A DNA stretch of 64,000 bases from Candidatus Levyibacteriota bacterium. GTDB lineage: Bacteria; Patescibacteriota; Microgenomatia; Levybacterales; UBA12049. A program made the translations under genes and the position numbers. Each line of letters opens with the position of its first letter. Within the stretch, counting starts at the first letter, position 1. The stretch lies in the NCBI GenBank assembly GCA_038205015.1, contig JBBRCK010000002.1, positions 33,913-97,912 on the forward strand, given 5' to 3'. Positions 27,334 through 46,327 of this stretch are shown here, one piece after another. The notes beneath the pieces are model-generated. The model saw nothing but the letters and a program-made list of their open reading frames with translations. It had not been told where the DNA came from and did not search any database.

Positions 27334-27749
27334 TTAAGAGGTTCTGGAGTGTTTACTTCTTCTGGCGACTTTTAACTCGAGTATAGCTTTTCTAAGTTCT
27401 GCCTCTGCCACCACAAAGTCTTTTTGATTCTCTCTGTTTTTCATAGCTTGCTTTGCTTTCTCTTGAGCTGCTTGAGCTTTTGCTACTTCGATGTCATCGG
27501 CTTTAACTGCATAATCTGCCAGTATATTTACATGATTATTTGCAATTTCTAAGAAACCGCCTGTAATCGCAAAATGCTCAATTTTATTATTGTTTCTAAT
27601 AATCATTTCCCCGGGAACAATTTTTGTTAAAAGATTAACATGGTTTGGAAGAATAGATATCTCTCCGGTTGTTGTAGGAATTGTTAGTTCGTCAACCTCT
27701 TCTTTTAGAATTACTTTTGTTGGGGTAATAATTTCCAGAATAAGCTTCA

Positions 27750-27750
<1 letters not shown>
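27334..27750 (-). CDS. atpC: F0F1 ATP synthase subunit epsilon.
   Basis: 138 aa. N-terminal beta-sandwich (PTTTGEISILPNH), C-terminal helix and operon position identify it. Confidence 0.85.
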
Positions 27751-30003
<2,253 letters not shown>

Positions 30004-30005
30004 AT

Positions 30006-31529
30006 TTAATTGAACATTTTCTTAAATTCTAATGCTCCTTTTTCTATTTTTTTCAAAAGTTCCTCGTTTGGTTTTTGACCTGTCGCTAATTCTTCTAAAA
30101 TTTTAGGATATTTTCTTTTCATAAAATTATGAAAGTCAGCTTCAAATTGTAATACTTTCTCAACGGCAATATCATCAATTATTCCGTTTGTAGCAACCCA
30201 AATGCTTAAATACTCCAAACTTTCTGAAAGTGGGCTGTATTGAAGCTGTTTTAGAATTTCGATTGTTCTTTTTCCTCTTTCAAGCTGTTTAGACGTTGCT
30301 TCATCTAGTTCTGATCCGAATTGCGCAAAAGCAGCTAAATTATTGTATTGTGCAAGTTCCAGTCTCATTTTTCCGGCAATAGATTTAATTGCTGGTGTTT
30401 GCGCTGCTCCTCCAACTCTGGAAACAGAGCTTGCCGCATCTATTGCTGGTCTATTTCCTGAATAAAATAGGTCAGTTGAGAAGAAAATTTGTCCGTCGGT
30501 AATGGAGATAACATTGGTTGGAATGTAAGCTGACAAGTCGTTTGCTTGAGTTTCAATTACGGGTAAAGCGGTAATTGATCCACCGCCATTTGCCTTATTC
30601 ATTTTTACTGCTCTTTCTAAAAGTCTTGAATGTAAATAAAAGATATCTCCAGGATAAGCTTCTCGTCCTGCCGGTCTTTTTAAAATTAACGATATTTGTC
30701 TATATGCCCAAGCGTGTTTAGTTAAATCATCGTAAACTACTAAAACATCTTTACCTTTTTCCATAAAGTATTCGGCGATAGCAACACCTGCATAAGGAGC
30801 TAAATACTGAAGGGAAGCAGGTTCGGAAGCCGAGGCAACAACTACGATTGTATAATCCAAGCTTTCTGCCTCTCTAAGTTTTTCAACTACCTGTGCAACG
30901 GTTGATTGTTTTTGTCCGATCGCAACGTAAATACAGATTACCGGATCTTCTTTTCTTAATTTTGCGGCCTGTTTTTGATTGATTATTGTGTCAATGGCTA
31001 TTGCAGTTTTACCGGTACCTCTATCTCCGATTATTAACTCTCTTTGCCCTCTTCCGATAGGAATCATTGAGTCAATCGCTTTAATACCTGTTTTAAGTGG
31101 AGTATTTACCGGTTCTCTTTCAACAACACCAGCTGCAATTCTCTCCAGAGGCATTGCTTTGCCTTTTTTAGGTTTTGATTTTGCATCTAACGGAACTCCA
31201 AGAGGATTAATGACTCTTCCTAAGAGATCCTCAGATGCCTCAATGCTTAAAAGAATTCCGGTAGTTTTAACGCTGTCTCCCTCCTTAAGGTTTTCAGCTT
31301 TATCAAGAAGTATTATTGAAACACTGTCTTCATCTAAATTTAATATTACTCCTCTTGAGCTGTTTTCAAATTCAACAATCTCTCCCATCATTGCTTTTGA
31401 AAGTCCTGATGCGACGATAACGCCGTCGTTATTCTTTTCAACAACACCAACATTGCTCTGAGACCCAGCAGCGTTAAATGATGATAATTTTTTTTCTAAA
31501 TCTTCGATTATTTTTTTACTTTTATCCAT
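30006..31529 (-). CDS. atpA: F0F1 ATP synthase subunit alpha.
   Basis: 507 aa. P-loop GDRGTGKTA, with ELIIGDRGTGKTAIAIDTIINQ. Confidence 0.95.
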   Translation of the reverse strand: MDKSKKIIEDLEKKLSSFNAAGSQSNVGVVEKNNDGVIVASGLSKAMMGEIVEFENSSRGVILNLDEDSVSIILLDKAENLKEGDSVKTTGILLSIEASEDLLGRVINPLGVPLDAKSKPKKGKAMPLERIAAGVVEREPVNTPLKTGIKAIDSMIPIGRGQRELIIGDRGTGKTAIAIDTIINQKQAAKLRKEDPVICIYVAIGQKQSTVAQVVEKLREAESLDYTIVVVASASEPASLQYLAPYAGVAIAEYFMEKGKDVLVVYDDLTKHAWAYRQISLILKRPAGREAYPGDIFYLHSRLLERAVKMNKANGGGSITALPVIETQANDLSAYIPTNVISITDGQIFFSTDLFYSGNRPAIDAASSVSRVGGAAQTPAIKSIAGKMRLELAQYNNLAAFAQFGSELDEATSKQLERGKRTIEILKQLQYSPLSESLEYLSIWVATNGIIDDIAVEKVLQFEADFHNFMKRKYPKILEELATGQKPNEELLKKIEKGALEFKKMFN

Positions 31530-31531
31530 AA

Positions 31532-31882
31532 TTACTTATTAATATAGTTAACCATTTGTTTAATATTATTTTTTAAATTAAAGTCATAAATTGTATCATT
31601 ATCGATTAATTGAAGCCCTGCAATTAATGATCTATCCTCTTTTAATATAATTTTCTTATTGGCAAATAACTTTTTCACCTCGTTTAATAAAGTACTGTTC
31701 TTTAAAAGATTAGGAACAACTATTGTAACAGTATTTTTATTTTCGATGTTTTTTAAAGATTTTATATACATTTTAAGATCTTTTTGTGATAACTGTTTTA
31801 CAATTTTATCGACTTTTTTTCCGTCCAATAAATTATTTGTATAACTTAAATTTGCCATTTTTTTTATAATTTTAAAATTCAT
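31532..31882 (-). CDS. atpH: F0F1 ATP synthase subunit delta (OSCP), N-terminally truncated form.
   Basis: 116 aa. The C-terminal motif LIAGLQLIDNDTIYDFNLKNNIKQ is OSCP-like, and it sits between atpF and atpA. It lacks the usual N-terminal helical domain of about 60 aa. Confidence 0.6.
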   Translation of the reverse strand: MNFKIIKKMANLSYTNNLLDGKKVDKIVKQLSQKDLKMYIKSLKNIENKNTVTIVVPNLLKNSTLLNEVKKLFANKKIILKEDRSLIAGLQLIDNDTIYDFNLKNNIKQMVNYINK

Positions 31883-31884
31883 AA

Positions 31885-32388
31885 TTAATTAATTTTTTTA
31901 ATATCTTTTATAGCCTTTTCCACGATTTGTTTTTGTTCCTTTTCTCCAAACATTCCTTCAAGTGTTTTTGAAATCATGTTTCCCGCTAGAATGCTGACAT
32001 TTTCGGTCAATTTTCTTTCTAAATTTTTTGCTTCCTGCTCAATTTGCGTTTTTGCTTCCATAATCATTTTTTCTGTTTGCTTCTTTGTATTTTGTTCAAT
32101 TTCTTTTGAAATTTCTAAAGCTTGTGTCTTTGTATCCTCGATAATCTTTTTAGCTTCATCTTGAGCATTAGATAAAATCTTTTTTTCTTTCTCGATTGTT
32201 TTTTCTAAGGTTAATCTTGATTCTTCCGCTTGTTTTAAACCTTCTTTGATTACATCTTCCCGTTTCTTCACCATATCCATAACGGGCTTATATAAAAAGC
32301 GTTTTAATAGAAAAAATATAATTAAAAAATTTATGATTTGAGCCCCCAGCATTACGGGATCAAATCCAAGGGTTTTTAAAAAATCCAT
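31885..32388 (-). CDS. atpF: F0F1 ATP synthase subunit b.
   Basis: 167 aa. One N-terminal TM helix and a long charged coiled-coil. Operon position supports the call. Confidence 0.75.
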   Translation of the reverse strand: MDFLKTLGFDPVMLGAQIINFLIIFFLLKRFLYKPVMDMVKKREDVIKEGLKQAEESRLTLEKTIEKEKKILSNAQDEAKKIIEDTKTQALEISKEIEQNTKKQTEKMIMEAKTQIEQEAKNLERKLTENVSILAGNMISKTLEGMFGEKEQKQIVEKAIKDIKKIN

Positions 32389-32391
32389 ATC

Positions 32392-32598
32392 TTATTTTAT
32401 GAAAGCTAAAATTAATGAATAAATTGCGATAGCTTCTGCGAATGCCATACCTAAAAGCATTGCTGGTAAAATTTTTCCTGATGCTTCTGGATTTCTTCCG
32501 ATCGCTTCCATTGCTTTTGCTCCGATTAATCCAATTGCCAAGGCTGCCATCTGACCTCCGATAGCAATAATTAATCCTCCGGATATACTAAATGTCAC
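32392..32598 (-). CDS. atpE: F0F1 ATP synthase subunit c.
   Basis: 68-aa hairpin with glycine-rich helix 1, RNPEA loop and a conserved carboxylate in helix 2 (AEAIAIY). Confidence 0.85.
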   Translation of the reverse strand: MTFSISGGLIIAIGGQMAALAIGLIGAKAMEAIGRNPEASGKILPAMLLGMAFAEAIAIYSLILAFIK

Positions 32599-33335
32599 TG
32601 GTGACTCACCTCCTTAGCATGCTCTTTATGTGGCGTCATTAAGACAGCCATAAAAGCCATGGTCAACATTGAAAAAACTAGTGCTTGAACCAGTCCAACA
32701 ACTACCTCAAGCATCATGAAGGGTAGGGGAAATAAAACTGCAAAAATTGTAGCAACCGTTCCTAAAACAACTTCGCCTGCAAAAATATTGCCAAATAAAC
32801 GGAAAGAAAGTGAAACAATCTTGGTTAATTCGCCAATAAGTTCAAGTATTCCAATGTAAAGACTTAAGGGATTTAAAGAAAAATATCTGGAAAGATACTC
32901 TTTTATCCCCAGAGTATTAAAACTTAAGATATGTGTTGCAAAAATAGACACTAAAGCTAAGGCAAGTGTGACATTAAAATCGCTGGTTGCTGCTCTAAAA
33001 AAGGGAATTATCTTATCGTGTTCTTTTATACCGATTACACTAATTCCCGGAATAAGGCCGGACCAGTTTGCAATTAAAATAAAAAGAAAAAAAGTCATAA
33101 AAAAGGGAAATATTTTTACTGTATTTTCTCCGGCGACAGAATATGTAATGTTATAAAATTCCTGAATAATCGTTTCAATTATTGTTTGAAGTTTTCCAGG
33201 GATTAGGCTGAGTTTTTTCCTCAATGAAATTATCAAGCCAATTAAGGCCGCATCAACTAGAAGGGTATCTAGAAAAGAGTTGGTAAAGCTAAAAAAGCCA
33301 ATACGAAAAATAGGTTCTGCTGCAAATGAAACCAT
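32595..33335 (-). CDS. atpB: F0F1 ATP synthase subunit a.
   Basis: 246 aa with 5-6 TM helices. Conserved Arg in LSFRLFGNIFAGE. Confidence 0.85.
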   Translation of the reverse strand: MVSFAAEPIFRIGFFSFTNSFLDTLLVDAALIGLIISLRKKLSLIPGKLQTIIETIIQEFYNITYSVAGENTVKIFPFFMTFFLFILIANWSGLIPGISVIGIKEHDKIIPFFRAATSDFNVTLALALVSIFATHILSFNTLGIKEYLSRYFSLNPLSLYIGILELIGELTKIVSLSFRLFGNIFAGEVVLGTVATIFAVLFPLPFMMLEVVVGLVQALVFSMLTMAFMAVLMTPHKEHAKEVSHQ

Positions 33336-33366
33336 TGTTATATTTTATTTATAAATTGAGTTCAAG

Positions 33367-36300
33367 TCAAGAAGCTAAATTGCTAAAAGATCTGATTTTA
33401 TCAACTAGAATTACCGGTTTGTCGTTTTTTGAATCAATCTTTCCGCTCACTAGAATAACATTTTCTTTAGTAAGTAGAGATTTGTAGTTGTCAAAAACTT
33501 TAGGAAAAATAACGCATTCGGCACTAACTCCATTTTCATTTGATAGCAGTAGGAATGCCATTTCTTTATTAGATTTTTTCGTAAAAATTCTTCTTATAGA
33601 TTCAACAATTCCTCCGATTGTAACTTGAGTGGTAGCTTTTTCTTCTTCCAAGGCTTCTAATTCGTGGGTAATTTCTGCTTTAATTTTAATTAAATTATCA
33701 AATTGCGGATGGGCGGTTAAGTAAAATCCTAAAAACTCTTTTTCAAAAGCAAGCTTTTCATCATCCGTAAAATCATTAAATTCGGAAGATGACTCAGTTA
33801 AAGTATCTTGTTTTTCAAATTCAGATTCAAATAAACTAGTTTGTCCACTTTTAGTTTCTTTTTTCTTTTTATTTGATTTTTCAATAATTTCCGGATAGTC
33901 TATTAACAATTTTGCTCTTTTGCCAAAAGTGTCCATGGCGCCAGCTTTAATTAAGCTTTCGACGGTTTTTTTGTTTATCGTTGAAAGATCAACTCTTTTA
34001 CAAAAATCGTCAAATGAGAGAAAATCTCCCTTATTTCTATTTTCCAAGATATTTTCGATTGCCGCTTTACCGACATTTTTAATAGCAGATAAACCAAATC
34101 TGATTTTAGTATTATCTTCAATAGTAAATTCATCACCCGATTTATTAATATTAGGAGGTAATACTTGAATTTTTATTCTTTTACATTCGGCAACTGCCTG
34201 GGCTATTTTTTCATTTTTGGTTGGGCCGGTAGTTCCTCTTGATTCCGCAGTTAGTAAAGCAGTCATCAGCTCAACAGGATAATTGGCTTTTAGGTAAGCG
34301 GTTCTAAAGGCGATTGTTGCATAGCATGCTGCGTGTGCTTTCCCAAACCCGTATCCTGCGAATGGTTCGAATAAAATCCATAAACCTTCTGCCTTATCTT
34401 TTGCCATTCCATTTGTAATACATCCTGAGATAAAATGATCATGTTCTTTTTTCATTTCAGCAGGAATTTTTTTACCAACTGCTTTTCTGAGTTTGTCTGC
34501 CTCAAGCCACGAGTAACCGGCAACTTTAATAGCGGTTAGAAGTAAATCGTCTTGGAAAGTGATTATTCCGTATGATTCTTTTAAAACATCCTCAAGTCTT
34601 GGGTCCGGAAATTTGATAAGCTTAGGGTTATGCTTTCTTCGAATAAACTCTGGGATATTTGCCATAGGGCCTGGTCGATACAAAGCTACCATTGCCTGCA
34701 GATCGAAAATAGTAGTCGGCTTTAACTCTTTGATATATCTTCTCATTCCTGATGATTCAAGCTGAAAAATTCCGGTTGTTTCGCCCGAAGCTAATAATTT
34801 ATAAGTTTTTTCATTCTCAAACGTAATTTTTGAAAAATCTACGACTTTTTCTTGATTTTCGAGTATAAATTTTAAAGCTTCTTGAATAATGGTTAGATTT
34901 CTAAGTCCTAAGAAATCAATTTTTAATAATCCTACTCCGTCTTCGCCAATTGAGTACATATCATATTGAGTAACAATTTTATCTCCATTACTTTCTCTTT
35001 GAAGTGGGGTATATTCGGTAATATCTTTATCGGCAATAACTACTCCAGCCGCGTGGACCGAGGCATGTCTAGCAACCCCTTCAACTTTTCTGGCTAAATC
35101 CAAAAGCCTTCTGGTTTCATCCTCGGTGGTATAAGCAATTTTAAGTTCCGGGCTTTGATCAAGGGCCTTATCAATTGTCATTGCGTGTCCTTGCCAGCCA
35201 AGAGGAATCATTTTAGAAATTCTGTCAGGAACTGAATAGGGATAGCCTAAAACTCTTCCAATATCTCTAACCGAACCTTTCGCTTCCATCGTTCCAAAAG
35301 TAATTATTTGAGCGACTTTATCTCGTCCGTATTTTTCGGTAACGTATTCAATTACTTCATCACGTCGATTGTCCGCAAAATCTAAATCAATATCAGGAGG
35401 GGATGGACGCATTGGATTTAAAAATCTTTCAAAAGGAAGCTTAAAGAAAAGTGGATCAATGTCGGAAATTCCGAGTGCATAAGATACTATCGAACCAGCA
35501 TTGGAACCTCTTCCAGGACCAACAGTAATTCCTTGCAATTTGGCCCAATTTACAAAGTCTGCAACAATTAAAATATATGTTTCGTATCCCTTTTTTAAAA
35601 TAATAGAAAGTTCATATTCAGTTCGCTCTGAAATTTCATTTGTAACAGTATTATATCTTCTTATTAATCCTTCGTTAACTTTAACTTTCATATATTCAGC
35701 AGCAGTAATTCCGCCTGGAACTTCAAACAAAGGCATAATCCATTTTCCAAGAGGAATTTCAACGTTGCACATCTCAGCAATTTTTACCGTATTTTCGATT
35801 GCTTCGGGATTTTGCACAAAAAGTCCGGTCATTTCTTCTTGAGTTTTAATATAAAAATCAGGAGAATTAATCATTGATAATTTTCTATCTTTCGTATCAA
35901 GCGTGGTTTGAGTTTGAACACACAATAAAGCCTCCTGTGCTTCTGCATCAGAATTTTTTACATAATGATTATCATTTGTTGCAACTAGGGGTATGCCTAA
36001 GTCTTTAGATAACTTTATTAATTTTGGGTTTAAAATTTCTTGTGGTGGAATATTAATATGTTTTTGGAGTTCCAAGTAAAAATTATCCTGTCCAAATATT
36101 TCGTTTAATTTTTTTGCCCTTTCGATTGCAGTTTGTTCCTGATTTCTTAAGAGTGGTTCGGAGATAAATCCGCTTACGCAAGCACTTAAACAAATTAATC
36201 CTTCATGATATTCGTTTAGTAGCTCTAAATCTGCGCGTGGTTTATAATAATATCCTTCCAATCCGGCAACAGAAATTATTTTCATTAAATTTTTATAACC

Positions 36301-36591
36301 TTGAAAATTTTTTGCAAGTAAAACCAAATGATTAGAATCTGAATCTATTCCAGCTTCTTTATCGTGTCTTGAACGCTTGCCAATGTAAATTTCTGCTCCG
36401 ATTATCGGTTTAATTCCTTCTTCGATACAGGTTTTGTAAAAGTTGATCATTCCATACATATTGCCATGGTCTGTGATGGCAATGGCTTTCATATTTAATT
36501 CCTTTGCACGCAAAACCATCTCTTTAATTTTTGAAAGACCGTCTAGAAGCGAAAACTCACTATGATTATGAAGATGAACAAAATCTGCCAT
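33367..36591 (-). CDS. dnaE: DNA polymerase III subunit alpha.
   Basis: 1074 aa. PHP domain FVHLHNHSEFSLLDG, polymerase core and OB fold. No intein. Confidence 0.95.
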   Translation of the reverse strand: MADFVHLHNHSEFSLLDGLSKIKEMVLRAKELNMKAIAITDHGNMYGMINFYKTCIEEGIKPIIGAEIYIGKRSRHDKEAGIDSDSNHLVLLAKNFQGYKNLMKIISVAGLEGYYYKPRADLELLNEYHEGLICLSACVSGFISEPLLRNQEQTAIERAKKLNEIFGQDNFYLELQKHINIPPQEILNPKLIKLSKDLGIPLVATNDNHYVKNSDAEAQEALLCVQTQTTLDTKDRKLSMINSPDFYIKTQEEMTGLFVQNPEAIENTVKIAEMCNVEIPLGKWIMPLFEVPGGITAAEYMKVKVNEGLIRRYNTVTNEISERTEYELSIILKKGYETYILIVADFVNWAKLQGITVGPGRGSNAGSIVSYALGISDIDPLFFKLPFERFLNPMRPSPPDIDLDFADNRRDEVIEYVTEKYGRDKVAQIITFGTMEAKGSVRDIGRVLGYPYSVPDRISKMIPLGWQGHAMTIDKALDQSPELKIAYTTEDETRRLLDLARKVEGVARHASVHAAGVVIADKDITEYTPLQRESNGDKIVTQYDMYSIGEDGVGLLKIDFLGLRNLTIIQEALKFILENQEKVVDFSKITFENEKTYKLLASGETTGIFQLESSGMRRYIKELKPTTIFDLQAMVALYRPGPMANIPEFIRRKHNPKLIKFPDPRLEDVLKESYGIITFQDDLLLTAIKVAGYSWLEADKLRKAVGKKIPAEMKKEHDHFISGCITNGMAKDKAEGLWILFEPFAGYGFGKAHAACYATIAFRTAYLKANYPVELMTALLTAESRGTTGPTKNEKIAQAVAECKRIKIQVLPPNINKSGDEFTIEDNTKIRFGLSAIKNVGKAAIENILENRNKGDFLSFDDFCKRVDLSTINKKTVESLIKAGAMDTFGKRAKLLIDYPEIIEKSNKKKKETKSGQTSLFESEFEKQDTLTESSSEFNDFTDDEKLAFEKEFLGFYLTAHPQFDNLIKIKAEITHELEALEEEKATTQVTIGGIVESIRRIFTKKSNKEMAFLLLSNENGVSAECVIFPKVFDNYKSLLTKENVILVSGKIDSKNDKPVILVDKIRSFSNLAS

Positions 36592-36593
36592 AT

Positions 36594-37334
36594 TTATGGG
36601 GAAACAATGACAGTCCTGTCTCTTCCTCCTTCTTTAGCACTATATAAACCAAGAGTGTCAACTTTTTCAAAAAATGCTCTTTCTTCCTGTTGTCGGTTTA
36701 TTCCTCCACCAATACTTACTGTTATTGGAATTTGTAAGTCTTGACCTTCTTTTGTTACCGAATAAGGAGAGCCTCCAACTGCTGTTCTTAATTTTTCAGC
36801 AACTTTTTCTAAATCTTCTTCGCTATGCATTCCTGGAAGTAGTACTACCAATTCTTCTCCTCCATAGCGAAATATTTGATCATTTTGCTCAGCTTCTGCT
36901 CGTACTTGTCTTAAATGTGATGTCAAATTTTGTGCGGTTTGAATTATAACGCTGTCTCCAACAGCATGACCGTAACTGTCATTAACTTTTTTAAAGTGGT
37001 CTATATCAACTATTAACAATCCAAATGGTGCTCCGTTCTCAATGAGTTTTTTAACTTCTTCCTTGTATGCGCCATTATCTAAAAGTCCCGTCATTGGATC
37101 TTTTCTTTTTTGACCTTTTACTCTTTCTGTTAATATATCTCTTGCTACCATAGATCTAGCAATAAGCTCATTTCTTTGTTCTTGGGTAAGTGTCCCTGAA
37201 TTAACTTGATTTTGAAGTGAATTAAGCCAATCGACATTAGACTGAATTCTTTGATCAATTCCAAGTCTCCTTTCACTTCTTTTTTCTGTTTGATTTTGTG
37301 GAATATTAGTTGGTGTTTCTACTGCTTCGCTCAT
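36594..37334 (-). CDS. GGDEF-domain protein (putative diguanylate cyclase) with a coiled-coil N-terminus.
   Basis: 246 aa. Motifs DPMTGLLDN, LLIVDIDHFKKVNDSYGHAVGD, RYGGEELVVLLP and ITVSIGG match the GGDEF fold. The signature is GGEEL and no RxxD I-site is evident. Confidence 0.75.
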   Translation of the reverse strand: MSEAVETPTNIPQNQTEKRSERRLGIDQRIQSNVDWLNSLQNQVNSGTLTQEQRNELIARSMVARDILTERVKGQKRKDPMTGLLDNGAYKEEVKKLIENGAPFGLLIVDIDHFKKVNDSYGHAVGDSVIIQTAQNLTSHLRQVRAEAEQNDQIFRYGGEELVVLLPGMHSEEDLEKVAEKLRTAVGGSPYSVTKEGQDLQIPITVSIGGGINRQQEERAFFEKVDTLGLYSAKEGGRDRTVIVSP

Positions 37335-38674
37335 TTTAATTTCGCGGTTAAAACCGCCTTAATTTTTTCAGCGTCAACTTTTTCTTTGAACTGACGCATA
37401 ACCTGACCTACTAAAAACATTATAACTGTTTCCTTGCCTTTTTTGAAGTCTTCAACAGCCCTCGGATTATCATTTATAACTTTTTCTACAATTTTATCTA
37501 ACTCATCTTCATTTACAGCTAATATAGCTGTTGCTTGAATAAATTGTTTAATAATACTTGCCGGAAGTTCGTCTGCAAGATTAACGTCTCTATTAACAAT
37601 AAAATTTGTGAGCTTTTGAGGGTCGATATTCTCTTTAATACCAATTTTTATTGCTTCTTCAAAATTAACAGATGCTTTTATGTTGTCAGATACAGTGATA
37701 GCATCGCTTATTTTAATATTAAGTTCTTTTGCTAATCTTGTTACTTTTTCATCTGGAAGCTCGGGGAGAGAATTTTTTATATTTTCTATTTCTTGCTTAA
37801 TCCATCTGATCGGTGGAATGTCTGGTTCTGGAAAATATCTATAATCGGAAGCTTCTTCTTTTACGCGCTGTGAAACTGTAGAAGAGTTTTTTTCCACAAA
37901 TCCTCTTGTTTCCTGAGCCGGAGTTTTTCCATTATCTAAAATTTCTGCTTGCCGATTAATTTCGTATTCAATTGCCTTACTAACAAAGCCAAACGAGTTG
38001 ATGTTTTTAACTTCTACTTTGTAATTTGGTAACTTAGTTTCTCCATCTTTTCTTAAAGATATATTTGGTTCAAGTCTCATATTGCCTTTTTCCATATCGG
38101 CATTAGATACATCGAGATATCTAACAATTTGTTGTAATTTTTGAAGATATTCTTTTACCTCCTCTGCAGTTTCAAAATCAGGTTCGGTTACTATCTCAAC
38201 TAAAGGTACGCCAGAACGGTTAAAATCTATCAAGCTAACATCTTTTCCGTTGACTACTTCGTGTATTAGTTTTCCCGTGTCTTCTTCCATATGCACCCTG
38301 GTAATACCGATTCTTTTTCCGGTTGAAAGAGTAATGTGGCCGCTTACGCAAAACGGTTTATCGTATTGGGAAATCTGATAACCTTTTGAGAGGTCAGGGT
38401 AAAAATAATTCTTTCTGTCAAATTTACTAAATAAAGGAATTTCGCAGTTTAATGCCAGGCCAATCATCACGCACCATTCGATTGCTTTTTTATTTGGGTA
38501 GGGAAGTGCTCCTGGTAATCCAAGGCATACTGGGCAAGTGTGAGTATTTGGTTTTTGTCCGAAATAATCCGCAGAACATGAACAAAACATTTTACTATTT
38601 GTTTTAAGTTCTACGTGTACTTCAAGTCCAATTACCGTTGTATATTTCATAATTTTGGCTTTAATCTTCTCCAA
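37331..38674 (-). CDS. gatB: Asp/Glu-tRNA amidotransferase subunit B.
   Basis: 447 aa. VIGLEVHVELKT..CPVCLGLPGALP N-terminus is typical of GatB. Confidence 0.9.
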   Translation of the reverse strand: MEKIKAKIMKYTTVIGLEVHVELKTNSKMFCSCSADYFGQKPNTHTCPVCLGLPGALPYPNKKAIEWCVMIGLALNCEIPLFSKFDRKNYFYPDLSKGYQISQYDKPFCVSGHITLSTGKRIGITRVHMEEDTGKLIHEVVNGKDVSLIDFNRSGVPLVEIVTEPDFETAEEVKEYLQKLQQIVRYLDVSNADMEKGNMRLEPNISLRKDGETKLPNYKVEVKNINSFGFVSKAIEYEINRQAEILDNGKTPAQETRGFVEKNSSTVSQRVKEEASDYRYFPEPDIPPIRWIKQEIENIKNSLPELPDEKVTRLAKELNIKISDAITVSDNIKASVNFEEAIKIGIKENIDPQKLTNFIVNRDVNLADELPASIIKQFIQATAILAVNEDELDKIVEKVINDNPRAVEDFKKGKETVIMFLVGQVMRQFKEKVDAEKIKAVLTAKLK

Positions 38675-40068
38675 TCTTCATTTTGACTAGCTTGTTCATA
38701 TTGATTAGCGACGGAAAGTATTAATTCTTCGCTAAATTGCGGGCCGATTATTTGCATTCCGATTGGAAGTTTAGAGGTAGAAAACCCTACCGGAATGTTT
38801 ATTCCTGCAAGACCTGCAATTGATGAAGGTTCAACTAAAACGTCTGCAATTTCACCAAACATAGAAAGATCTTTAGTTGCCCCTACGGGTAGTGCCAATG
38901 ATGGACTGGTGGGAGCAATAATTACATCTACTTTTTCGAAGGCTTTTTTAAAGTCGTTTATAATTACAGTTCGTACTTTTTGAGCTTTATTATAATATTG
39001 ATCGTAATATCCAGAAGATAGTGCGTATGTTCCAAACATAATTCTTCTCTTTGCTTCCTCCATAAATTTTTCCCTTCCTGATCCAAATCTGATTCCGTCG
39101 TATCGGGCTAGATTAGAAGAAACTTCTGATCTTTGAATGATGGTATAAACATCTATTGCATATTTAGGATCAAAAAGTTTTATATCTTCTTGTTTTGCAC
39201 CTAATTCCAATAATTTCAATACAGCCTTTTTCACTGCTTCTTCAACTTCCTTATCGATTCCTTTAATAAAATATTCACTGGAAATTCCAATTCTTAAGTC
39301 CTTTATTGATTTGTCCAAATTTTTAGAATAATCCCCTACCAGTTGCGGGGAAGTGGTAGCGTCTAATTCGTCTTTTCCGGCTAAAATTTGTAAGATTAGT
39401 GCCGAATCTTCAACTGTTTTTGTAATTGGGCCGGGGGAATCAAGCGACGAACCCATGGCAACAACACCATACCTACTGACTCTTCCGTAAGTTGGCTTTA
39501 AGCCAACCACCCCACACCATGATGCTGGCTGCCTAATCGAGCCTGCAGTTTCAGATCCAATAGCAGCTATTACTTGGTTTGCTGCAACTGCTGCCGCTGA
39601 GCCTCCTGAAGAGCCTCCAGGTAAGTGATTTGTGTTCCAAGGGTTTCGAGTAGGTCCAAAATCGGATGTTTCGGTAGACGAGCCATGTGCCCAAGCGTCC
39701 ATATTTGTTTTTCCTATCATTACCATTCCGGAATCTTTTAATTTTTTAACAACTGTTGCATCGTATGGAGGAATATAATCTTCCAAAACTTTGCTTGAAG
39801 CGGTTGTTTTGACTCCTTGGGTTGAAAAATTGTCTTTAAAAGCAATTGGAATTCCCAAAAGCGGAAGTTCGACTCCATTTTTTAAAGCTTCATCAGCATT
39901 CCTTGCTTGTTCTAAAGCCTCTTGTTGGGTAACTGTTACGAAAGCATTTAATTTATCATCGGTTTGTTTAATTTGATCAAGACAAGCATTGGTAAGTTCA
40001 ACAGATGAAAAATCTTTATTCTTTAATCCTTCCTGCGTTTTTTTAATTGTTAATTGGTTTAGATTCAT
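38647..40068 (-). CDS. gatA: Asp/Glu-tRNA amidotransferase subunit A (amidase).
   Basis: 473 aa. Amidase signature GGSSGGSAAAVAA with the Ser-cisSer-Lys triad context. Confidence 0.9.
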   Translation of the reverse strand: MNLNQLTIKKTQEGLKNKDFSSVELTNACLDQIKQTDDKLNAFVTVTQQEALEQARNADEALKNGVELPLLGIPIAFKDNFSTQGVKTTASSKVLEDYIPPYDATVVKKLKDSGMVMIGKTNMDAWAHGSSTETSDFGPTRNPWNTNHLPGGSSGGSAAAVAANQVIAAIGSETAGSIRQPASWCGVVGLKPTYGRVSRYGVVAMGSSLDSPGPITKTVEDSALILQILAGKDELDATTSPQLVGDYSKNLDKSIKDLRIGISSEYFIKGIDKEVEEAVKKAVLKLLELGAKQEDIKLFDPKYAIDVYTIIQRSEVSSNLARYDGIRFGSGREKFMEEAKRRIMFGTYALSSGYYDQYYNKAQKVRTVIINDFKKAFEKVDVIIAPTSPSLALPVGATKDLSMFGEIADVLVEPSSIAGLAGINIPVGFSTSKLPIGMQIIGPQFSEELILSVANQYEQASQNEDWRRLKPKL

Positions 40069-40073
40069 ATATT

Positions 40074-40730
40074 TTAAAAAGTACGAATACCTTTTCGTTG
40101 AATATTTACTTTATGTGTATTAGCTATTTTAAAATAGTTTCCATCAGTTTCTATTACGACATACCCGGTATTTTCAATAGAGCCACTAGGTAAATGATGA
40201 AATTTAGCATGCCCGATATAATTTAAAAAACATCTTATTATATTGCCATGAGAAACAATCATTATTGTTTGATTCTTGTGAATAACTAATATTTCTTTTA
40301 GATAATTAATTAATCTAATTGCTGCTTCTTCTACGCTTTCCATTTCATTTGTATGTTTATATTCTAAAATTTCTTTTTCGCTTAGATTACTTAAATCTTT
40401 TTGGATATCTTTTCTTAACTCTTGTTCAGATTTACCACTTAAGGTCATTAAATAGTGCCAAAAATTTCTTTCTCTTATCTGATTAGTTAGTGCAAGATTA
40501 AGATTTTTATTCTTGGCAATAAATTCTGCAGTTTGCTTTGTTCTATTTAAGTCAGATGAATAAATTGCATCTATTTTTGTATTTCTAAATTCTTTTGTTA
40601 AATCTTTTGCTTGTTTAATTCCATTATTTGTAAGTTTGCTTTCAAATTCATCACTTTTTACCTTATATTGTCCTATGTTATCAAATGATTCGGCATGTCT
40701 TACTAAATAAATTGTTGTTAAGTTATTCAT
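40074..40730 (-). CDS. Histidine phosphatase family protein (phosphoglycerate-mutase-like).
   Basis: 218 aa. N-terminal RHG motif (IYLVRHAESFDN) with a downstream catalytic His. Overlaps gatC by 8 nt. Confidence 0.7.
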   Translation of the reverse strand: MNNLTTIYLVRHAESFDNIGQYKVKSDEFESKLTNNGIKQAKDLTKEFRNTKIDAIYSSDLNRTKQTAEFIAKNKNLNLALTNQIRERNFWHYLMTLSGKSEQELRKDIQKDLSNLSEKEILEYKHTNEMESVEEAAIRLINYLKEILVIHKNQTIMIVSHGNIIRCFLNYIGHAKFHHLPSGSIENTGYVVIETDGNYFKIANTHKVNIQRKGIRTF

Positions 40731-41007
40731 TATTAAAAATTGCGTTTACTTTAAATAAACCATTGTGTATTGATTTTGCGTTAGATAAGGCTTGTTCTTG
40801 GGTTAGCGAAGGTTTTGCGATATCATCGCGGACAATATTCTCTAGGCCAGTAACTTGGCTAGTTGGTTCGATACCTTTTGTATCCACAGTATTTAACTCC
40901 TCAACGTATCTAATGGTTTCTTCAAGTTGGGTTTCAAGTTTGGTTTTTTCTTCGGGGGTTAGTGGAAGATTTGCGAGTTTTGCTATATGTGTAACATCTA
41001 TTTTCAT
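40723..41007 (-). CDS. gatC: Asp/Glu-tRNA amidotransferase subunit C.
   Basis: 94 aa. IAKLANLPLTPEE...EELNTVDT is typical of GatC. Confidence 0.8.
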   Translation of the reverse strand: MKIDVTHIAKLANLPLTPEEKTKLETQLEETIRYVEELNTVDTKGIEPTSQVTGLENIVRDDIAKPSLTQEQALSNAKSIHNGLFKVNAIFNNE

Positions 41008-41015
41008 CCCAATTA

Positions 41016-41768
41016 TTATATTGTAATACCGAGCTTTTTAGCAACTTGCAGTCTTGCGTTTTCTTCCAGGGTGTCATCAAGAGTTTTAAGCTCAATTATT
41101 TTTTTATATTTAACCTGTAATGCTTTAGAAATTAAATAATCTGCCAGCATGGGATTTTTAGGTAATATTGGTCCATGAAAATATGTTCCGATCGAATTCT
41201 TATAAATTGCCCCCTCTTCTTTTGATGCTTCGTTACTTCCAAAACCTTTAATTACTTTTCCTAGCGGCTTAATACTGCTGCCAAGTATAGTTCGGCCTCC
41301 ATGGTTTTCAAATCCGATAATAGTGGTTGGCTTAGTAAATAAATCGATGTTTTCAATTGCAATATTTCCAATCAGGCGTTCTCCTCCAGGATTTTCGGTA
41401 TACATATCAAGTATTCCAAGTTGAGGTAATTTATTATCGTTGGCGGTTTTATAATATTCTCCTAAGTACTGAAAACCTCCACAAATATAAAGTCCGGGAA
41501 TACCTGATTCAATTATTGTTTTTAATGTTTCCTTTTTCTTAATTAAGTCTTTAGCAACAATTTCCTGTTGGGTATCTTGTGCTCCGCCCATCATTATTAA
41601 ATCTAAAGATAAAAGGTCTTGTTTTGTTGAATCAATTCCTATATTTTTAACCTCAGTCTCAATACCGCGCCAATGGCATCTTTTTTGTAATACGATAATA
41701 TTACCTCTGTCTCCATAGGTACTCATTAATTCAGGATATAGCCAGCCAATGGTTAATTTAAGCTTCAT
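41016..41768 (-). CDS. gatD: Lipid II isoglutaminyl synthase glutaminase subunit GatD (CobB/CobQ-type GATase).
   Basis: 250 aa. GDRGNII, ICGGFQYLGEYY, GFENHGGRT and HGPILPKNP closely match S. aureus GatD motifs. Confidence 0.8.
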   Translation of the reverse strand: MKLKLTIGWLYPELMSTYGDRGNIIVLQKRCHWRGIETEVKNIGIDSTKQDLLSLDLIMMGGAQDTQQEIVAKDLIKKKETLKTIIESGIPGLYICGGFQYLGEYYKTANDNKLPQLGILDMYTENPGGERLIGNIAIENIDLFTKPTTIIGFENHGGRTILGSSIKPLGKVIKGFGSNEASKEEGAIYKNSIGTYFHGPILPKNPMLADYLISKALQVKYKKIIELKTLDDTLEENARLQVAKKLGITI

Positions 41769-43045
41769 AATATTTTTTTGCCTGTTAAAATTTTTCTTAT
41801 TTCAAGCATTGCCGAGTAATTAGCAAGAATATAAAGTGTTTCGCTATCATCTAAATTTCCCAGAATTTTTGTAATACCTAATTCTAAATCAGTAAATACG
41901 TGATTAAAACAATCTGTATATTTTAGCCTTAAAGACAGGTCTTCTTTTCTATCGCCGCAAACTGAAATATTCATATCTTTTTCCAAGAGCCTTTCAAAAT
42001 CTATATCCCAAATCCAGGAAACATCAAGTCCATCAGGAATTTGGTCATTTAATGCAAATAACAAGTTTTTTCCGTTTAATTTATTAACGGTATCCAAAGA
42101 CTCGTTAAAACTAATTGGGTTTTTGGATAAAAATATTTTTACTTTTCTATTTTTGTAAATAATTTCTTCTTGTCTCCCAAAAGCAGGTTTAAATTCTTTT
42201 AATGCCTTTTCGATTTGGGCATTTTCAAGTCCCAAAGCTTTTGAAAAGACTACGCTGGCAAGTGTATTGTAAATAGCATAAGTGCCAGACAGCGGATAAT
42301 AAGAAAAACTGGTCATATCAGGCTTTGGTCTCTTAAGTTGACAGTTAGGACAATCCCAAATTCCTAAATGAGAAAAATAGTAGCTTTCAAAATTTAACTT
42401 AGTCATACAATTAGGGCATAAAATTGAATCTGCTCCGTGTTGAATAAGTTTTGTTTGAAGTGATTTTTCGCTTAGTCCGAAGTAATATGTTTTAAGCTTT
42501 AGTTTTAATCCTAAAAATGCAATCTGTGGGTCATCGGCATTTAAGATAAGAGTTGTATTTTTATATTTTCCGATTGTTTTCTTCCACTTCTTAGCAATCG
42601 AGTCGATTTCTCCATATCTATCGAGTTGATCTCTAAATAGATTTAAGGCAATAAGATAATCTGGCTCAATCTTTTCTGATAATACAGAAAGGGCATTCTC
42701 ATCAACTTCAAATATCGCAACCTCTTTTTTTAAATTTCCCAAAAAATCTGAATTAATTATTAGAGACGAAGCAACCCCGCTTAATAAATTTGCGCCTGAG
42801 GAATTAATCATTATTTTAATGTTATTTTTTTCAAGAATTGTCTCGATTAACTTTGAGGTGGTTGTTTTTCCATTGGTACCAACAACAAATACAGTTTTTA
42901 ACTTATTTTTCTTTAAAACTTCTTGAACAAATTTTTTATTTAACTTTAAGGCAATGTGTCCGGGCCAAGTTGAGCCATTTCCTAGGTTTAATCTGGTACT
43001 GACAAAAGATAGAGCCTTTCCTAAAAAAAATATTAAATTGTTCAT
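41765..43045 (-). CDS. murT: Lipid II isoglutaminyl synthase MurT (Mur-ligase-like with Cys4 zinc ribbon and DUF1727).
   Basis: 426 aa. Nucleotide-binding loop VVGTNGKTTTSKLI, zinc ribbon CPNC...CPNC, and a Mur-ligase central domain. Coupled to gatD by ATGA overlap. Confidence 0.8.
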   Translation of the reverse strand: MNNLIFFLGKALSFVSTRLNLGNGSTWPGHIALKLNKKFVQEVLKKNKLKTVFVVGTNGKTTTSKLIETILEKNNIKIMINSSGANLLSGVASSLIINSDFLGNLKKEVAIFEVDENALSVLSEKIEPDYLIALNLFRDQLDRYGEIDSIAKKWKKTIGKYKNTTLILNADDPQIAFLGLKLKLKTYYFGLSEKSLQTKLIQHGADSILCPNCMTKLNFESYYFSHLGIWDCPNCQLKRPKPDMTSFSYYPLSGTYAIYNTLASVVFSKALGLENAQIEKALKEFKPAFGRQEEIIYKNRKVKIFLSKNPISFNESLDTVNKLNGKNLLFALNDQIPDGLDVSWIWDIDFERLLEKDMNISVCGDRKEDLSLRLKYTDCFNHVFTDLELGITKILGNLDDSETLYILANYSAMLEIRKILTGKKIL

Positions 43046-43047
43046 TA

Positions 43048-43950
43048 CTACATGCTGCGAAGGATTTTTATTCTTTCTTCAATTGAAGGATGTGTGTCAA
43101 ACAAAGATACAAACATTTGTTTTGTATTTTTTCCTTTAAATGGGTTGACAATAAATAGATGTGCTGTTGCATTGCTGGCTGATTTCAAAGTATTTTTATT
43201 TTGCTCAAGTTTTTCCAAAGCACTGGCTAATCCCTCAGGATATCTGGTTAAAAGTGCTCCGGAGGCATCCGCTAAAAATTCTCTTTTTCTTGAAATTGCC
43301 AGCTGAATTAAAGTTGCTGCAATGGGGGATAAAATCGCGAGAATTATGCCAATAATTAAAAAAACAGATTGTAAGCTGTTATCTTTACTATCTCTGCCTC
43401 TTCCAAATCCGCCAAACCAAAGCTGGTTAGTAAAAAGATTAGAAAGTATTGCCACAAATCCGACCAATATCGCCACAATTCCCATTAGCCTGATGTCAAA
43501 ATTTTTAACATGGGATAGTTCATGGGCAATTACACCCTCAAGCTCGCTTTTATCCAGTATTGCAAGAATGCCTGATGTTACACAAACTATTGCATGCTTA
43601 GGATCCCTGCCGGTTGCAAATGCGTTAGGGGAGGGGTCGTTAATTAAATATATTCTGGGCAAGGGAATCCCATCTCCTATACAAAGGTTTTCAACAATTC
43701 TAAAAAGCTCAGGATTATCCTGTTTTGCAATTTCTTTCGCGCCTGTGGTTGCCAAAATTATTTTATCGGAATAGTAATAGCTGCTAACGCTAGTAATAGT
43801 TGCCAGAATAAGTGCAATTACTGCAAAACCTATTCCATAGCCAAGTGCTTTGGAAAACACATAAACAAGGGTAGTTATTATTAAAACAAACAATAACATT
43901 ATCGCCCAAGTTTTATTTTTATTTGAAGATATAGCTGAGTATATATTCAT
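43048..43950 (-). CDS. htpX: M48-family zinc metalloprotease HtpX.
   Basis: 300 aa with TM helices. HEXXH as GVIAHELSHVKN. Confidence 0.75.
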   Translation of the reverse strand: MNIYSAISSNKNKTWAIMLLFVLIITTLVYVFSKALGYGIGFAVIALILATITSVSSYYYSDKIILATTGAKEIAKQDNPELFRIVENLCIGDGIPLPRIYLINDPSPNAFATGRDPKHAIVCVTSGILAILDKSELEGVIAHELSHVKNFDIRLMGIVAILVGFVAILSNLFTNQLWFGGFGRGRDSKDNSLQSVFLIIGIILAILSPIAATLIQLAISRKREFLADASGALLTRYPEGLASALEKLEQNKNTLKSASNATAHLFIVNPFKGKNTKQMFVSLFDTHPSIEERIKILRSM

Positions 43951-43952
43951 GT

Positions 43953-44498
43953 TTAAAAACTAACTTTGACTGGTTTTTTATCATCTTCAGTTGCTCCAAA
44001 AAATTCTGCATCTTTAAAGTTAAAGAGTTTTGCAAAAAATACGTTTGGAAAAACTCGTAACTTTGTGTTGTAATCCAAGACATTTGAGTTATAGAACTGT
44101 CTTGAGTAAGCAACTTTATTTTCCGTGTCGGAAAGTTCACCTTGAAGCTCCATAAAGTTTTGGCTAGCCTTTAAATCTGGATAGCTTTCTGCTACTGCAA
44201 AAATTGATTTCAAAGTATCGCTAAGTTGAGAATTTGCTGCAGCTTTTTCTTGTGGTCCTTTTGCAGAAACTAAATTAGCTCTTTCTTTTGTTACTTTCTC
44301 AAAAAGATCTTTTTCGTGTTTGGCATAACCTTTTACGGCTTCAACCAAATTTGGAATTAAATCAGCTCTTCTTTTAAGTTGAACATCAATTTGCGAGAGA
44401 GCTTCTGATACTCGCATCTTTGCAACAATGATGCTGTTATACAGAAACCATACAAAAACAAGTACTAGTCCTATTCCTAATATTAAGTAAATATTCAT
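43953..44498 (-). CDS. lemA: LemA-family protein.
   Basis: 181 aa with an N-terminal TM helix. Conserved LemA core [38 protein letters not shown] lies upstream. Confidence 0.75.
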
Positions 44499-44518
44499 TT
44501 AATCGTGGCACCTCCTTT

Positions 44519-46327
44519 CTATTTTTCAATCCAATTTCTAAATTCATTATACGATAAAGAGTTTAAGATGTCATTTTTTGTTGCCCATCCACGTCTCGCC
44601 ATAAATATTCCGTATTTTTGCATATCCATTTGATTCTTTGCGTGGCTATCAGAATCAATAACCAGTTTTACTCCAGCATTTATCGCCATTTTTATATTTG
44701 AATCGGTTAAATCTAGACGCCCAGGCCAACTATTGATTTCTAAAGCTTTATTATTTTTATTACAAAAATTGAATAATTTCTCCCAATCTAATTCATATCC
44801 CGGTCTAGCGTTTAACAGTCTTCCAGTAGGGTGGGCGAGTATTTTAGCTTTTGGATGTGATAATCCATTTATAATTCTCTCGGTCATTTTCTCTTTATCC
44901 ATATTAAAAACGCTATGAATAGAAATAATTACTGCGTCAAGCAAGTTTAGCGATTTATTATCGATTGCAAGTTTTCCTGAGGGTAAAATATCAACTTCGA
45001 GCAATTTAATTATTCGAACATATTTATTGCTAGATTTAAGTTGCTCAATTTTTTCATTGCGTTTATTTATGATTTCGTATATTTTTTCATTGGTATGCTT
45101 ACTTAAACTAGGATTATGCTCTGAAAATCCTAAATATTCATAATTGAGTTCTTTTGCCTTGATTAGCATTTCTTCCATTGAATTATTTCCTAAATCGTGG
45201 CTTGGTTCTATTGGAAAGCTCGAGTGAATGTGCAAATCTCCTTTTAAATCGTTAATTTTTATTAAATCAGGAAGTTTCTTTCTATCTGCAAGTTCAATTT
45301 CGCCAGTGTCTTCCCTAATTTCTGGGGGAATCCAAGGTAATCCAATAGCGTTATAAAATTTTTCCTCATCTTCATATTTAGTAATTTTGCCATCCTTAGA
45401 TTTTATTCCATATTCAGATAAAGATAGTTTCTTTTTTAAAGCATATTCTCTTAGATGAACATTATGATTTTTGCTGCCTGTAAAGTGTTGCAGTAAAGAG
45501 CCGAATGCATCGCTTGGTTGGATTAAAAGATCAACCTGTCTGCCTCCGGATACCAAAAGTGAGGCTGAAATATCTCCTTTTTCAATTATTCTCTCTTTCC
45601 CGGGATAGTTTACGAAATATTCAATTACGTTTTTAGAATTTTTTGAGGCTACTGCCAAATCAATATCACCTACAGTTGGCATGCGTCTTCTTAGACTACC
45701 AAGAGCCTCAACTTTATCAACATCAGGACATTGTTTTAAATACAAAATAAGCTTTTCGGCAATCTCAAAAGCGTAAGGTAAAGTCATTCTGGTGGTTTTA
45801 CCTTTTCCTTCTTTAAATTCGGCAATTGCTCTTAAGATATCTGCTTGTGACTTTTCTCCAAAACCCTCTAAAGACGCGATTTTACCTTTACTTGCAAGTT
45901 TTGCTAGCTCCTTAATTACTGTTTTAGGATCTGATAGGTTAAATTTATGCACCAGCTTATATGCTCTTTTAGGACCAAAAGATGGAATATCCATCAGCAC
46001 AAAGACGGATTCGGGAATATCCTTTAAAGCCCATTCAAACTGTGCCGTTGTTCCTGTTTTAAATAAATCAATTAAGTGAGATTGTATTGTTCTCCCAACT
46101 CCAGAAAGCTGGTCTAGTTTATTTTCGCGGTAGTAATCTTTTAATTCACCGGTAAGGTTAGCAATTGTATCTGCTGCTCTTTGATAAGCGATAATCTGAA
46201 AGCGAAATTTATTTTCATCTTTGATAATATATGAGGCTGCGACATTTTTTAAAAGTTTTGAGATTTCAAGGTTACTCACAGTTAAAAAATAATAGCACTT
46301 AGTAAGGTCTGGTACAAGGCTTGTCAT
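44519..46327 (-). CDS. polX: DNA polymerase X family protein with a C-terminal PHP phosphoesterase domain.
   Basis: 602 aa. N-terminal Pol-beta-like HhH and nucleotidyltransferase (GSLRRRMPTVGDIDL). C-terminal PHP (HIHSSFP...DSDSH). Confidence 0.8.
   Translation of the reverse strand: MTSLVPDLTKCYYFLTVSNLEISKLLKNVAASYIIKDENKFRFQIIAYQRAADTIANLTGELKDYYRENKLDQLSGVGRTIQSHLIDLFKTGTTAQFEWALKDIPESVFVLMDIPSFGPKRAYKLVHKFNLSDPKTVIKELAKLASKGKIASLEGFGEKSQADILRAIAEFKEGKGKTTRMTLPYAFEIAEKLILYLKQCPDVDKVEALGSLRRRMPTVGDIDLAVASKNSKNVIEYFVNYPGKERIIEKGDISASLLVSGGRQVDLLIQPSDAFGSLLQHFTGSKNHNVHLREYALKKKLSLSEYGIKSKDGKITKYEDEEKFYNAIGLPWIPPEIREDTGEIELADRKKLPDLIKINDLKGDLHIHSSFPIEPSHDLGNNSMEEMLIKAKELNYEYLGFSEHNPSLSKHTNEKIYEIINKRNEKIEQLKSSNKYVRIIKLLEVDILPSGKLAIDNKSLNLLDAVIISIHSVFNMDKEKMTERIINGLSHPKAKILAHPTGRLLNARPGYELDWEKLFNFCNKNNKALEINSWPGRLDLTDSNIKMAINAGVKLVIDSDSHAKNQMDMQKYGIFMARRGWATKNDILNSLSYNEFRNWIEK

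Follow-up and report, generated by a model that had tools for sequence, protein, structure and literature searches.

Why does a signaling gene sit between gatB and dnaE, in the middle of a housekeeping gene array? We asked this of a 64,000-nucleotide (nt) stretch of a Candidatus Levyibacteriota genome (contig JBBRCK010000002.1; the whole stretch is called the window here), in which an open reading frame (ORF) for a 246-amino-acid (aa) GGDEF protein separates the two genes. We found that the product is probably an active diguanylate cyclase without a sensor domain, one that would dimerize through its N-terminal helices, would be expressed with the housekeeping array, and, like the other members of its subfamily (type A), has an altered inhibitory site (I-site). 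We also found that the gatB-dnaE junction is a Levybacteria-specific variable slot that holds zero, one, or two GGDEF genes.

The GGDEF gene and its active site

The original prediction described a GGDEF gene that overlaps gatB by 4 nt and lies 2 nt from dnaE. The ORF and junction sequences bore out the gene, its coordinates, and both junctions. The overlap is an ATGA, formed by the ATG of the GGDEF gene (37334-37332) and the TGA of gatB (37333-37331). At the other end, the TAA of the GGDEF gene ends at 36594, and the dnaE ATG is at 36591. The same ATGA overlap is present in the gene tables of the related loci L082, L084, L086, L090, L092, and L093 and of the P0006 contig, and in L094 the two genes overlap by 8 nt.

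The protein matched the GGDEF models PF00990 (96.5 bits; cutoff, 23.8; E = 1.8e-27) and TIGR00254 (108.9 bits; cutoff, 37.4; E = 2e-31), and none of the NCBIfam equivalog cutoffs was reached. PDB sequence matches to the domain include Bdellovibrio DgcB (6hbz) and PleD. A word-indexed search yielded a family of about 45 protein clusters, A1 (235 to 280 aa, E ≤ 1e-40, 39 to 78% identity), after which similarity drops to that of generic GGDEF proteins. Because these roughly 45 clusters show the same length and architecture, the ORF is, on the evidence of conservation, a real gene and not a chance ORF. By every sequence criterion tested, the protein belongs to the GGDEF cyclase family.

Read directly, the active-site (A-site) motif is RYGGEEL, as first reported. 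Both glycines and both acidic residues are kept, and only position 5 departs, with Leu in place of Phe. HMMER and MAFFT alignments matched D110, K115, N118, D127, and R156 to PleD D327, K332, N335, D344, and R366 and matched G158-G159-E160-E161, K234, and R238 to PleD GGEE, K442, and R446. By these alignments, the full set of metal-, phosphate-, and guanine-binding residues of PleD is present, and we found no catalytic or substrate-binding residue missing. We measured conservation in an alignment of 35 A1 members (33 to 78% identity). Invariant or at least 90% conserved were D110, D112, F114, K115, N118, D119, G122, H123, G126, and D127 in the first part of the domain and R156, Y157, G158, G159, E160, E161, K234, and R238 in the second. 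The gene had initially been read as either an active source of cyclic di-GMP (c-di-GMP) or a degenerate receptor. With the PleD catalytic and substrate residues invariant in the family, the active source appears to be the better of the two.

Position 5 of the motif had been singled out as a departure from GG(D/E)EF. Leu at this position is confined to the window protein's closest relatives and P0028, and the other A1 members have Phe, Ile, Met, or Val. DgcP (YtrP) of Bacillus subtilis, a functional c-di-GMP synthase in vivo, has the motif GGEEL (PMC5422440). Since the residue varies among the relatives and DgcP is functional with Leu, GGEEL appears to be a local variant that gives no evidence of inactivity, and we attach no further meaning to it.

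The altered part of the domain is the I-site. We found no RxxD five residues upstream of the A-site motif, where the sequence is EQNDQIFRYGGEEL; the absence of a canonical site had been predicted. R142 and D152 nonetheless align to PleD R359 and D362 (HMMER), and both are invariant in A1. They lie nine residues apart (R142-x9-D152), split by a family-specific 7-aa insertion that is longer in some members. A contiguous RxxD is found in most of the slot types other than A. Through this insertion, feedback inhibition by the product may have been lost in type A.

These residues also bear on whether the domain is catalytically dead and acts as a receptor for c-di-GMP or GTP or as a scaffold. The metal-, phosphate-, and base-binding residues are all intact and conserved, and GGEEL is functional in DgcP. 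Known receptor-type GGDEF proteins combine a degenerate A-site with dependence on an intact RxxD I-site. The arrangement in the window protein is the reverse, with RxxD disrupted and the A-site intact, and by this criterion the protein would not be a degenerate receptor. The unusual motif position 5 and the lack of a sensor domain are what a receptor role has in its favor, and we consider such a role very improbable.

The original prediction also allowed for another cyclic dinucleotide. We judge it improbable that the enzyme makes a product other than c-di-GMP, for example 3'3'-cyclic GMP-AMP or cyclic di-AMP, in the manner of the Hypr GGDEF enzymes, or linear pppGpG, or that it directly serves DnaE or GatB (taken up below). 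The guanine-recognizing residues N118 and D127 (PleD N335 and D344) are invariant, and the guanine-specifying Asp is thus in place. Hypr enzymes carry Ser at the D344 position. That position is Asp in at least 90% of A1 members and in 26 of 28 slot genes (Asn in the other 2), and by this criterion the protein would not be a Hypr (cyclic GMP-AMP-producing) GGDEF enzyme. What does fit another product is that we saw no canonical c-di-GMP partner genes in the window.

An AlphaFold2 monomer model (mean predicted local distance difference test score, 86) has residues 1 to 16 disordered, followed by helices at 18 to 45 and 51 to 77 and then a canonical GGDEF fold. The N terminus had been called a coiled coil. 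The model agrees that it is helical, and it is better described as a predicted helical pair or stalk. As the original prediction stated, there is no sensor or transmembrane domain. We found no known N-terminal domain, and the first 78 residues had no similarity in Pfam or the PDB. The top Foldseek matches in the PDB, which cover both the helix and the domain, were the stalk or coiled-coil cyclases SiaD of Pseudomonas aeruginosa (7e6g), GCN4-WspR (3i5c), and Caulobacter DgcB (6ttr), with PleD next.

Within the N-terminal module, W36, A59, R60, and R71 are conserved in A1. An exhaustive profile search, run without filters against 1.84 billion representative proteins, gave 49 matches to the module. 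Because 39 of the 49 are proteins of 216 to 280 aa, with the match nearly always at the N terminus, the module appears to be specific to the architecture of helices followed by GGDEF. The other matches are short fragments and long multi-stretch proteins.

Two resemblances at the N terminus were considered and not adopted. The disordered tail (residues 1 to 17, 37284-37334) carries a basic motif, E(R/K)RSxRR, that is conserved in A1 and lost in the more divergent type-A members. PilZ domains bind c-di-GMP through the pattern RRxxxR. The tail motif formally fits this pattern, and a substitute product-binding site there is pure speculation; there is no PilZ barrel, and a PilZ-type site is no more than an idea here. 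An MshEN-like "RLG..." similarity was rejected because it extends over only three residues.

The gatB-dnaE junction as a variable slot

Six loci of type-A relatives (33 to 62% identity) all have the order gatB-GGDEF-dnaE, and the flanking array is also the same wherever the contig reaches further. On the gatB side, the junctions of related loci are an ATGA overlap or a gap of 1 to 24 nt, and on the dnaE side they are gaps of 1 to 17 nt. When loci were picked by GatB similarity alone, all three had a GGDEF gene in the slot. The occupant is not always the same gene. GatA, GatB, DnaE, and AtpB of L092 and L093 are 73 to 85% identical to those of the window. The GGDEF proteins of these two loci share only 29% identity with that of the window, across about 120 residues, and have unrelated N termini.

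A metagenome scan seeded with GatB added 80 loci. We counted slot contents in the GatB-sampled metagenome loci that had both genes and a DnaE at least 61% identical (n = 19). A GGDEF gene occupied the slot in 14 of these, encoding a protein of 205 to 312 aa with a helical N terminus and a GGDEF domain. In the remaining 5, gatB and dnaE were separated by a spacer of only 4 to 57 nt. At 12 more distant loci, gatB abutted dnaE or the two flanked unrelated inserts. Two GGDEF genes in tandem, of types C and B (27% identical), were present in L097 (5352-6682) and in L096 (1395-2752), a near-identical partial duplicate of L097. The tandem pair is consistent with birth and death of genes in the slot or with differential loss from it. 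The direct gatB-dnaE junction is the older arrangement, and the GGDEF gene is an insertion specific to Levybacteria. The original prediction placed the gene in a conserved super-operon; the operon is indeed conserved, but the GGDEF gene is no fixed part of it, being replaced, duplicated, or lost between close relatives.

The occupants are highly diverse. The 28 slot genes fell into 14 clusters, that is, at least 14 very divergent subfamilies, and GGDEF similarity was not correlated with GatB similarity (Spearman coefficient, 0.07; 377 pairs). Where GatB is 73 to 81% identical to the window's, the GGDEF protein is either 74 to 78% identical (P0002, P0003, P0007, and P0008) or 29% identical (L092 and L093). 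The P0006 contig shows the reverse discordance (GatB, 66%; GGDEF, 76%), as judged from protein sequences paired by gene layout. The boundaries are sharp. In L098 and L106, the flanking DNA is 83 to 89% identical as far as the gatB stop on one side and the dnaE start on the other, and the cassettes in between share 42% DNA identity and 23% protein identity. The Jukes-Cantor divergence of these cassettes (1.12) exceeds the divergence at four-fold sites of the flanks (0.37 to 0.65), and relaxed constraint alone is therefore insufficient to explain it.

The catalytic residues are retained in nearly all slot types, and every slot protein tested scores above the Pfam GGDEF threshold. Phmmer scores between slot types were 45 to 100 bits, no higher than those to generic bacterial GGDEF proteins, and for this reason a common origin of the slot types in place is neither shown nor excluded. 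A profile scan of genome contigs with the family alignment returned generic GGDEF proteins of other phyla and no Levybacteria locus.

One explanation for this turnover, which we think unlikely, is a conflict or interface module. Rapidly diversifying stalk-GGDEF proteins would act as sensors whose variable helices recognize fast-evolving phage, host, or competitor proteins, the product would trigger effectors encoded elsewhere, and placement in an essential operon might guarantee expression. PADLOC-DB v2 defense models gave no matches for the eight slot-cyclase types tested. No effector gene is adjacent in any locus, the neighbors being GatB and DnaE throughout, and translational coupling between housekeeping genes is unusual for defense genes. 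Such a module would account for cassette-like turnover with razor-sharp boundaries, for divergence above the neutral level of the flanks, and for the presence, absence, and tandem copies that we saw. It would also account for catalytic residues that persist across types whose N termini are unrelated, and for a type-A N-terminal module that is almost confined to this architecture. The variability could instead reflect neutral exchange of functionally equivalent cyclases. It is similarly doubtful that the junction is a dedicated diversification hotspot, in which selection keeps the cyclase chemistry and drives wholesale replacement elsewhere in the protein, especially in the N-terminal helices.

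The slot also informs the possible direct role in the service of DnaE or GatB that we judged improbable above. Adjacency to dnaE is constant, and on one metagenome contig (L123, 5329-9129) a type B GGDEF domain and DnaE form a single in-frame ORF of 1266 aa, in which ...KTTGGRN is followed directly by FVHLHNHSEYS. The fusion is not conserved, and five close relatives have no GGDEF gene, so neither DnaE nor GatB depends on one. A GGDEF protein 99% identical to that of L123 (P0282 and its cluster, including Levybacteria RIFOXYA1_FULL_41_10) stands alone, with 209 aa and the ending ...GGRITNQLVKPAA, and we found no fused GGDEF-DnaE protein among the search matches. We rejected the fusion as a Rosetta-stone link to replication because of the stand-alone protein; L123 looks like a variant with a deletion of about 40 nt or an assembly artifact.

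Two further contigs were unusual. L108 (2886-3740) has a 284-aa ORF downstream of gatB that matches GGDEF only weakly (Pfam, 30.7 bits) and whose motif, GGADE, is degenerate; dnaE was not detected on this contig, and the ORF may be a slot gene that is decaying or has taken on another role. In L084 (10792-14024), dnaE is present as two overlapping ORFs (577 and 515 aa). The sister contig L085, with an identical GGDEF protein, has an intact dnaE of 1075 aa, and the split in L084 is probably a frameshift error.

Gene array, partners, and a model for the cyclase

No EAL, HD-GYP, PilZ, or MshEN domain was found in the roughly 45 window ORFs scanned with Pfam; nine sugar-pathway ORFs and the LemA, M48, and ATP synthase genes were judged by eye or from orthologous loci instead. 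Rfam detected no c-di-GMP riboswitch in the 64-kb window, even at E ≤ 1. The two scans agree with the earlier observation that no c-di-GMP partner is visible in this stretch.

We propose the following model. The protein would be a small soluble cyclase that condenses two GTP molecules into c-di-GMP, with the N-terminal helical pair as a dimerization stalk that joins two GGDEF domains, as in SiaD, WspR, and Caulobacter DgcB. Because there is no sensor domain and RxxD is interrupted by the 7-aa insertion, output would probably be set mainly by expression, which the ATGA overlap and the 2-nt gap would link to that of the gatCAB-dnaE-atp array. Binding of a partner to the family-specific N terminus might also contribute. 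In the ancestral state, gatB would have been followed directly by dnaE. Stalk-GGDEF genes would have entered the Levybacteria junction later, and divergent subfamilies would then have been exchanged or sorted between close relatives with their catalytic residues kept.

Four points weigh against this model. Neither the window nor the roughly 10 kb on either side of the related loci shows a c-di-GMP phosphodiesterase, receptor, or riboswitch. We infer co-transcription and translational coupling of the array from junction geometry only. The two N-terminal helices may fold back on each other and not form a parallel stalk, the structural model being that of a monomer. The slot data do not separate three histories: an ancestral tandem array that lost different members in different lineages, homologous replacement, and very rapid divergence in situ.

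The features of the locus are collected in Table 1.

Table 1. Positions in the window of the GGDEF gene, its parts, and its neighbors
Feature	Position	Strand	Basis
GGDEF gene, type A slot cyclase, 246 aa	36594-37334	-	ORF, Pfam/NCBIfam matches, orthologue family A1, AlphaFold2 model
N-terminal module, residues 1-78 (disordered tail and predicted helices 18-45 and 51-77)	37101-37334	-	AlphaFold2, conservation
GGDEF catalytic domain, residues 79-240	36615-37100	-	PF00990, PDB sequence matches, Foldseek
A-site motif, R156-Y-G-G-E-E-L162	36849-36869	-	Direct reading; aligned to PleD R366-YGGEEF
Split I-site equivalent, R142 and D152	36879-36911	-	HMMER alignment to PleD
ATGA overlap, gatB stop and GGDEF start	37331-37334	-	Junction sequence
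gatB, upstream flank, 447-aa ORF	37331-38674	-	Pfam GatB_N and GatB_Yqey
dnaE, downstream flank, 1074 aa	33367-36591	-	Pfam PHP, DNA_pol3_alpha, finger, HHH_6, OB
Co-directional gene array, 19 kb	27334-46327	-	ORFs, Pfam, same order in L082-L094

The array has the order PolX, LemA, M48 peptidase, MurT, GatD, GatC, His_Phos, GatA, GatB, GGDEF, DnaE, and atpBEFHAGDC. Its spacers are at most about 31 nt, except for a gap of about 200 nt that is expected to hold the short atpE. Promoter-like and terminator-like sites in the window were not enriched over shuffled sequence.

Several details of the junction region deserve mention. The start of gatB is uncertain: the TTG of the ORF at 38674 makes it overlap gatA by 28 nt (38647-38674), and the database protein (P0121) has 439 aa and starts eight codons downstream of that TTG. 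The window has no Shine-Dalgarno sequence before the GGDEF start; L082, L086, and L090 have GGAGG or AGGAGG 6 to 12 nt upstream. The last codons of gatB contain a short, perfect hairpin (37344-37357; coding-strand sequence, GCGGTTTTAACCGC), 8 to 22 nt 5' of the GGDEF start. We rejected it as a regulatory element: it lies within the gatB coding sequence and is identical in L084 only, and terminator-like sites are not enriched over shuffled sequence.

Elsewhere in the array, a histidine phosphatase gene (PF00300; 40074-40730, minus strand) lies between gatC and gatA in the window only, gatC being followed by gatA in related loci. In L082 and L090, an asparaginase gene on the opposite strand lies upstream of gatC, and L084 has a PF05635 "23S rRNA IVP" gene between gatA and gatB. 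These variants therefore point to further small variable insertion points in the array. ARAGORN called an 86-nt tRNA-Lys(ttt) at 40475-40560 (plus strand), inside and antisense to the histidine phosphatase gene. It is probably a false positive, since Rfam is silent there even at E ≤ 1.

The G+C content of the window is about 33% and falls to 25 to 28% in the first 26 kb. This low-G+C part (1-26500), outside the array, is a cell-surface glycosylation cluster with rhamnose-pathway genes, several GT2 and GT4 glycosyltransferases, two GT2-PMT fusions, and a PMT-family protein. It also encodes YfhO, a Wzx-like flippase, and a Wzy/O-antigen-ligase-like protein. A classic target of c-di-GMP is the synthesis of exopolysaccharide, but none of these proteins has a PilZ domain. 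A 139-aa ORF at 61136-61555 (minus strand), flanked by an RNase-H-like gene and a DNA polymerase III delta-like gene, matched the "putative phage metallopeptidase" family PF18894 (E = 6e-21).

Significance and comparison with known systems

Bacteria of the candidate phyla radiation (CPR), or Patescibacteria, have genomes of <1 Mb and are probably symbionts, and second-messenger signaling in them is essentially unexplored. Full-text literature searches for GGDEF genes in Levybacteria found nothing. For GGDEF proteins or c-di-GMP in CPR, Patescibacteria, Levybacteria, or Saccharibacteria, the one mention they turned up was a number of cyclase genes given in passing for metagenome-assembled genomes from groundwater (PMC9938205). 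Two things appear to be new here: a Levybacteria-specific subfamily with its own N-terminal module, and the gatB-dnaE junction as a fixed slot for stalk-GGDEF genes that are exchanged, duplicated, or lost.

If expression is tied to the genes for the tRNA amidotransferase, the replicative polymerase, and ATP synthase, c-di-GMP output would be linked to growth. A sensor-less cyclase would also offer a very simple setting in which to study the role of c-di-GMP in a minimal cell. The slot sequences differ among themselves as much as from any bacterial GGDEF protein, which is unusual for a signaling enzyme, and the slot is a natural experiment that separates the constrained from the diversifying parts of a cyclase. 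Should the diversification hotspot that we doubt prove true, the partner sensed by the cyclases would be a fast-evolving one, for example a phage factor or a host or episymbiosis factor. The cyclases would then represent a new GGDEF-based form of conflict or interface signaling in CPR bacteria, hard-wired into an essential operon.

Among characterized proteins, SiaD (7e6g), WspR (3i5c), and Caulobacter DgcB (6ttr) are alike in having a short helical N terminus before a canonical GGDEF domain and in being small and soluble. They differ in that their N-terminal helices have no detectable sequence similarity to those found here, where in addition there is no receiver domain and RxxD is interrupted. 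The NCBIfam model of SiaD (NF038266) aligned to residues 68 to 240 with 105.3 bits, below its equivalog cutoff of 290, and no SiaABC-like partner genes were found in the window. PleD (1w25, 2v0n) has a domain 33 to 36% identical in structural alignment, with all active-site residues matched. In contrast to PleD, the protein described here has no receiver domains and shows three changes: F372 to Leu, R359xxD362 to R142-x9-D152, and R390 to K181. DgcP shares the identical GGEEL motif but differs in carrying GAF sensor domains at its N terminus and in its genomic context, which is unrelated.

As a locus, the slot resembles the hotspots of variable genes, such as those for defense or capsule, that lie between conserved core genes. 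Both have conserved flanks, sharp boundaries, and occupants that are unrelated or absent in close relatives. No mobile-element genes were called or recognized in the gene tables of the sampled loci. Unlike those hotspots, the slot lies inside a tightly packed housekeeping array, and its occupant is always of one enzyme class, a single small cyclase gene or two in tandem.

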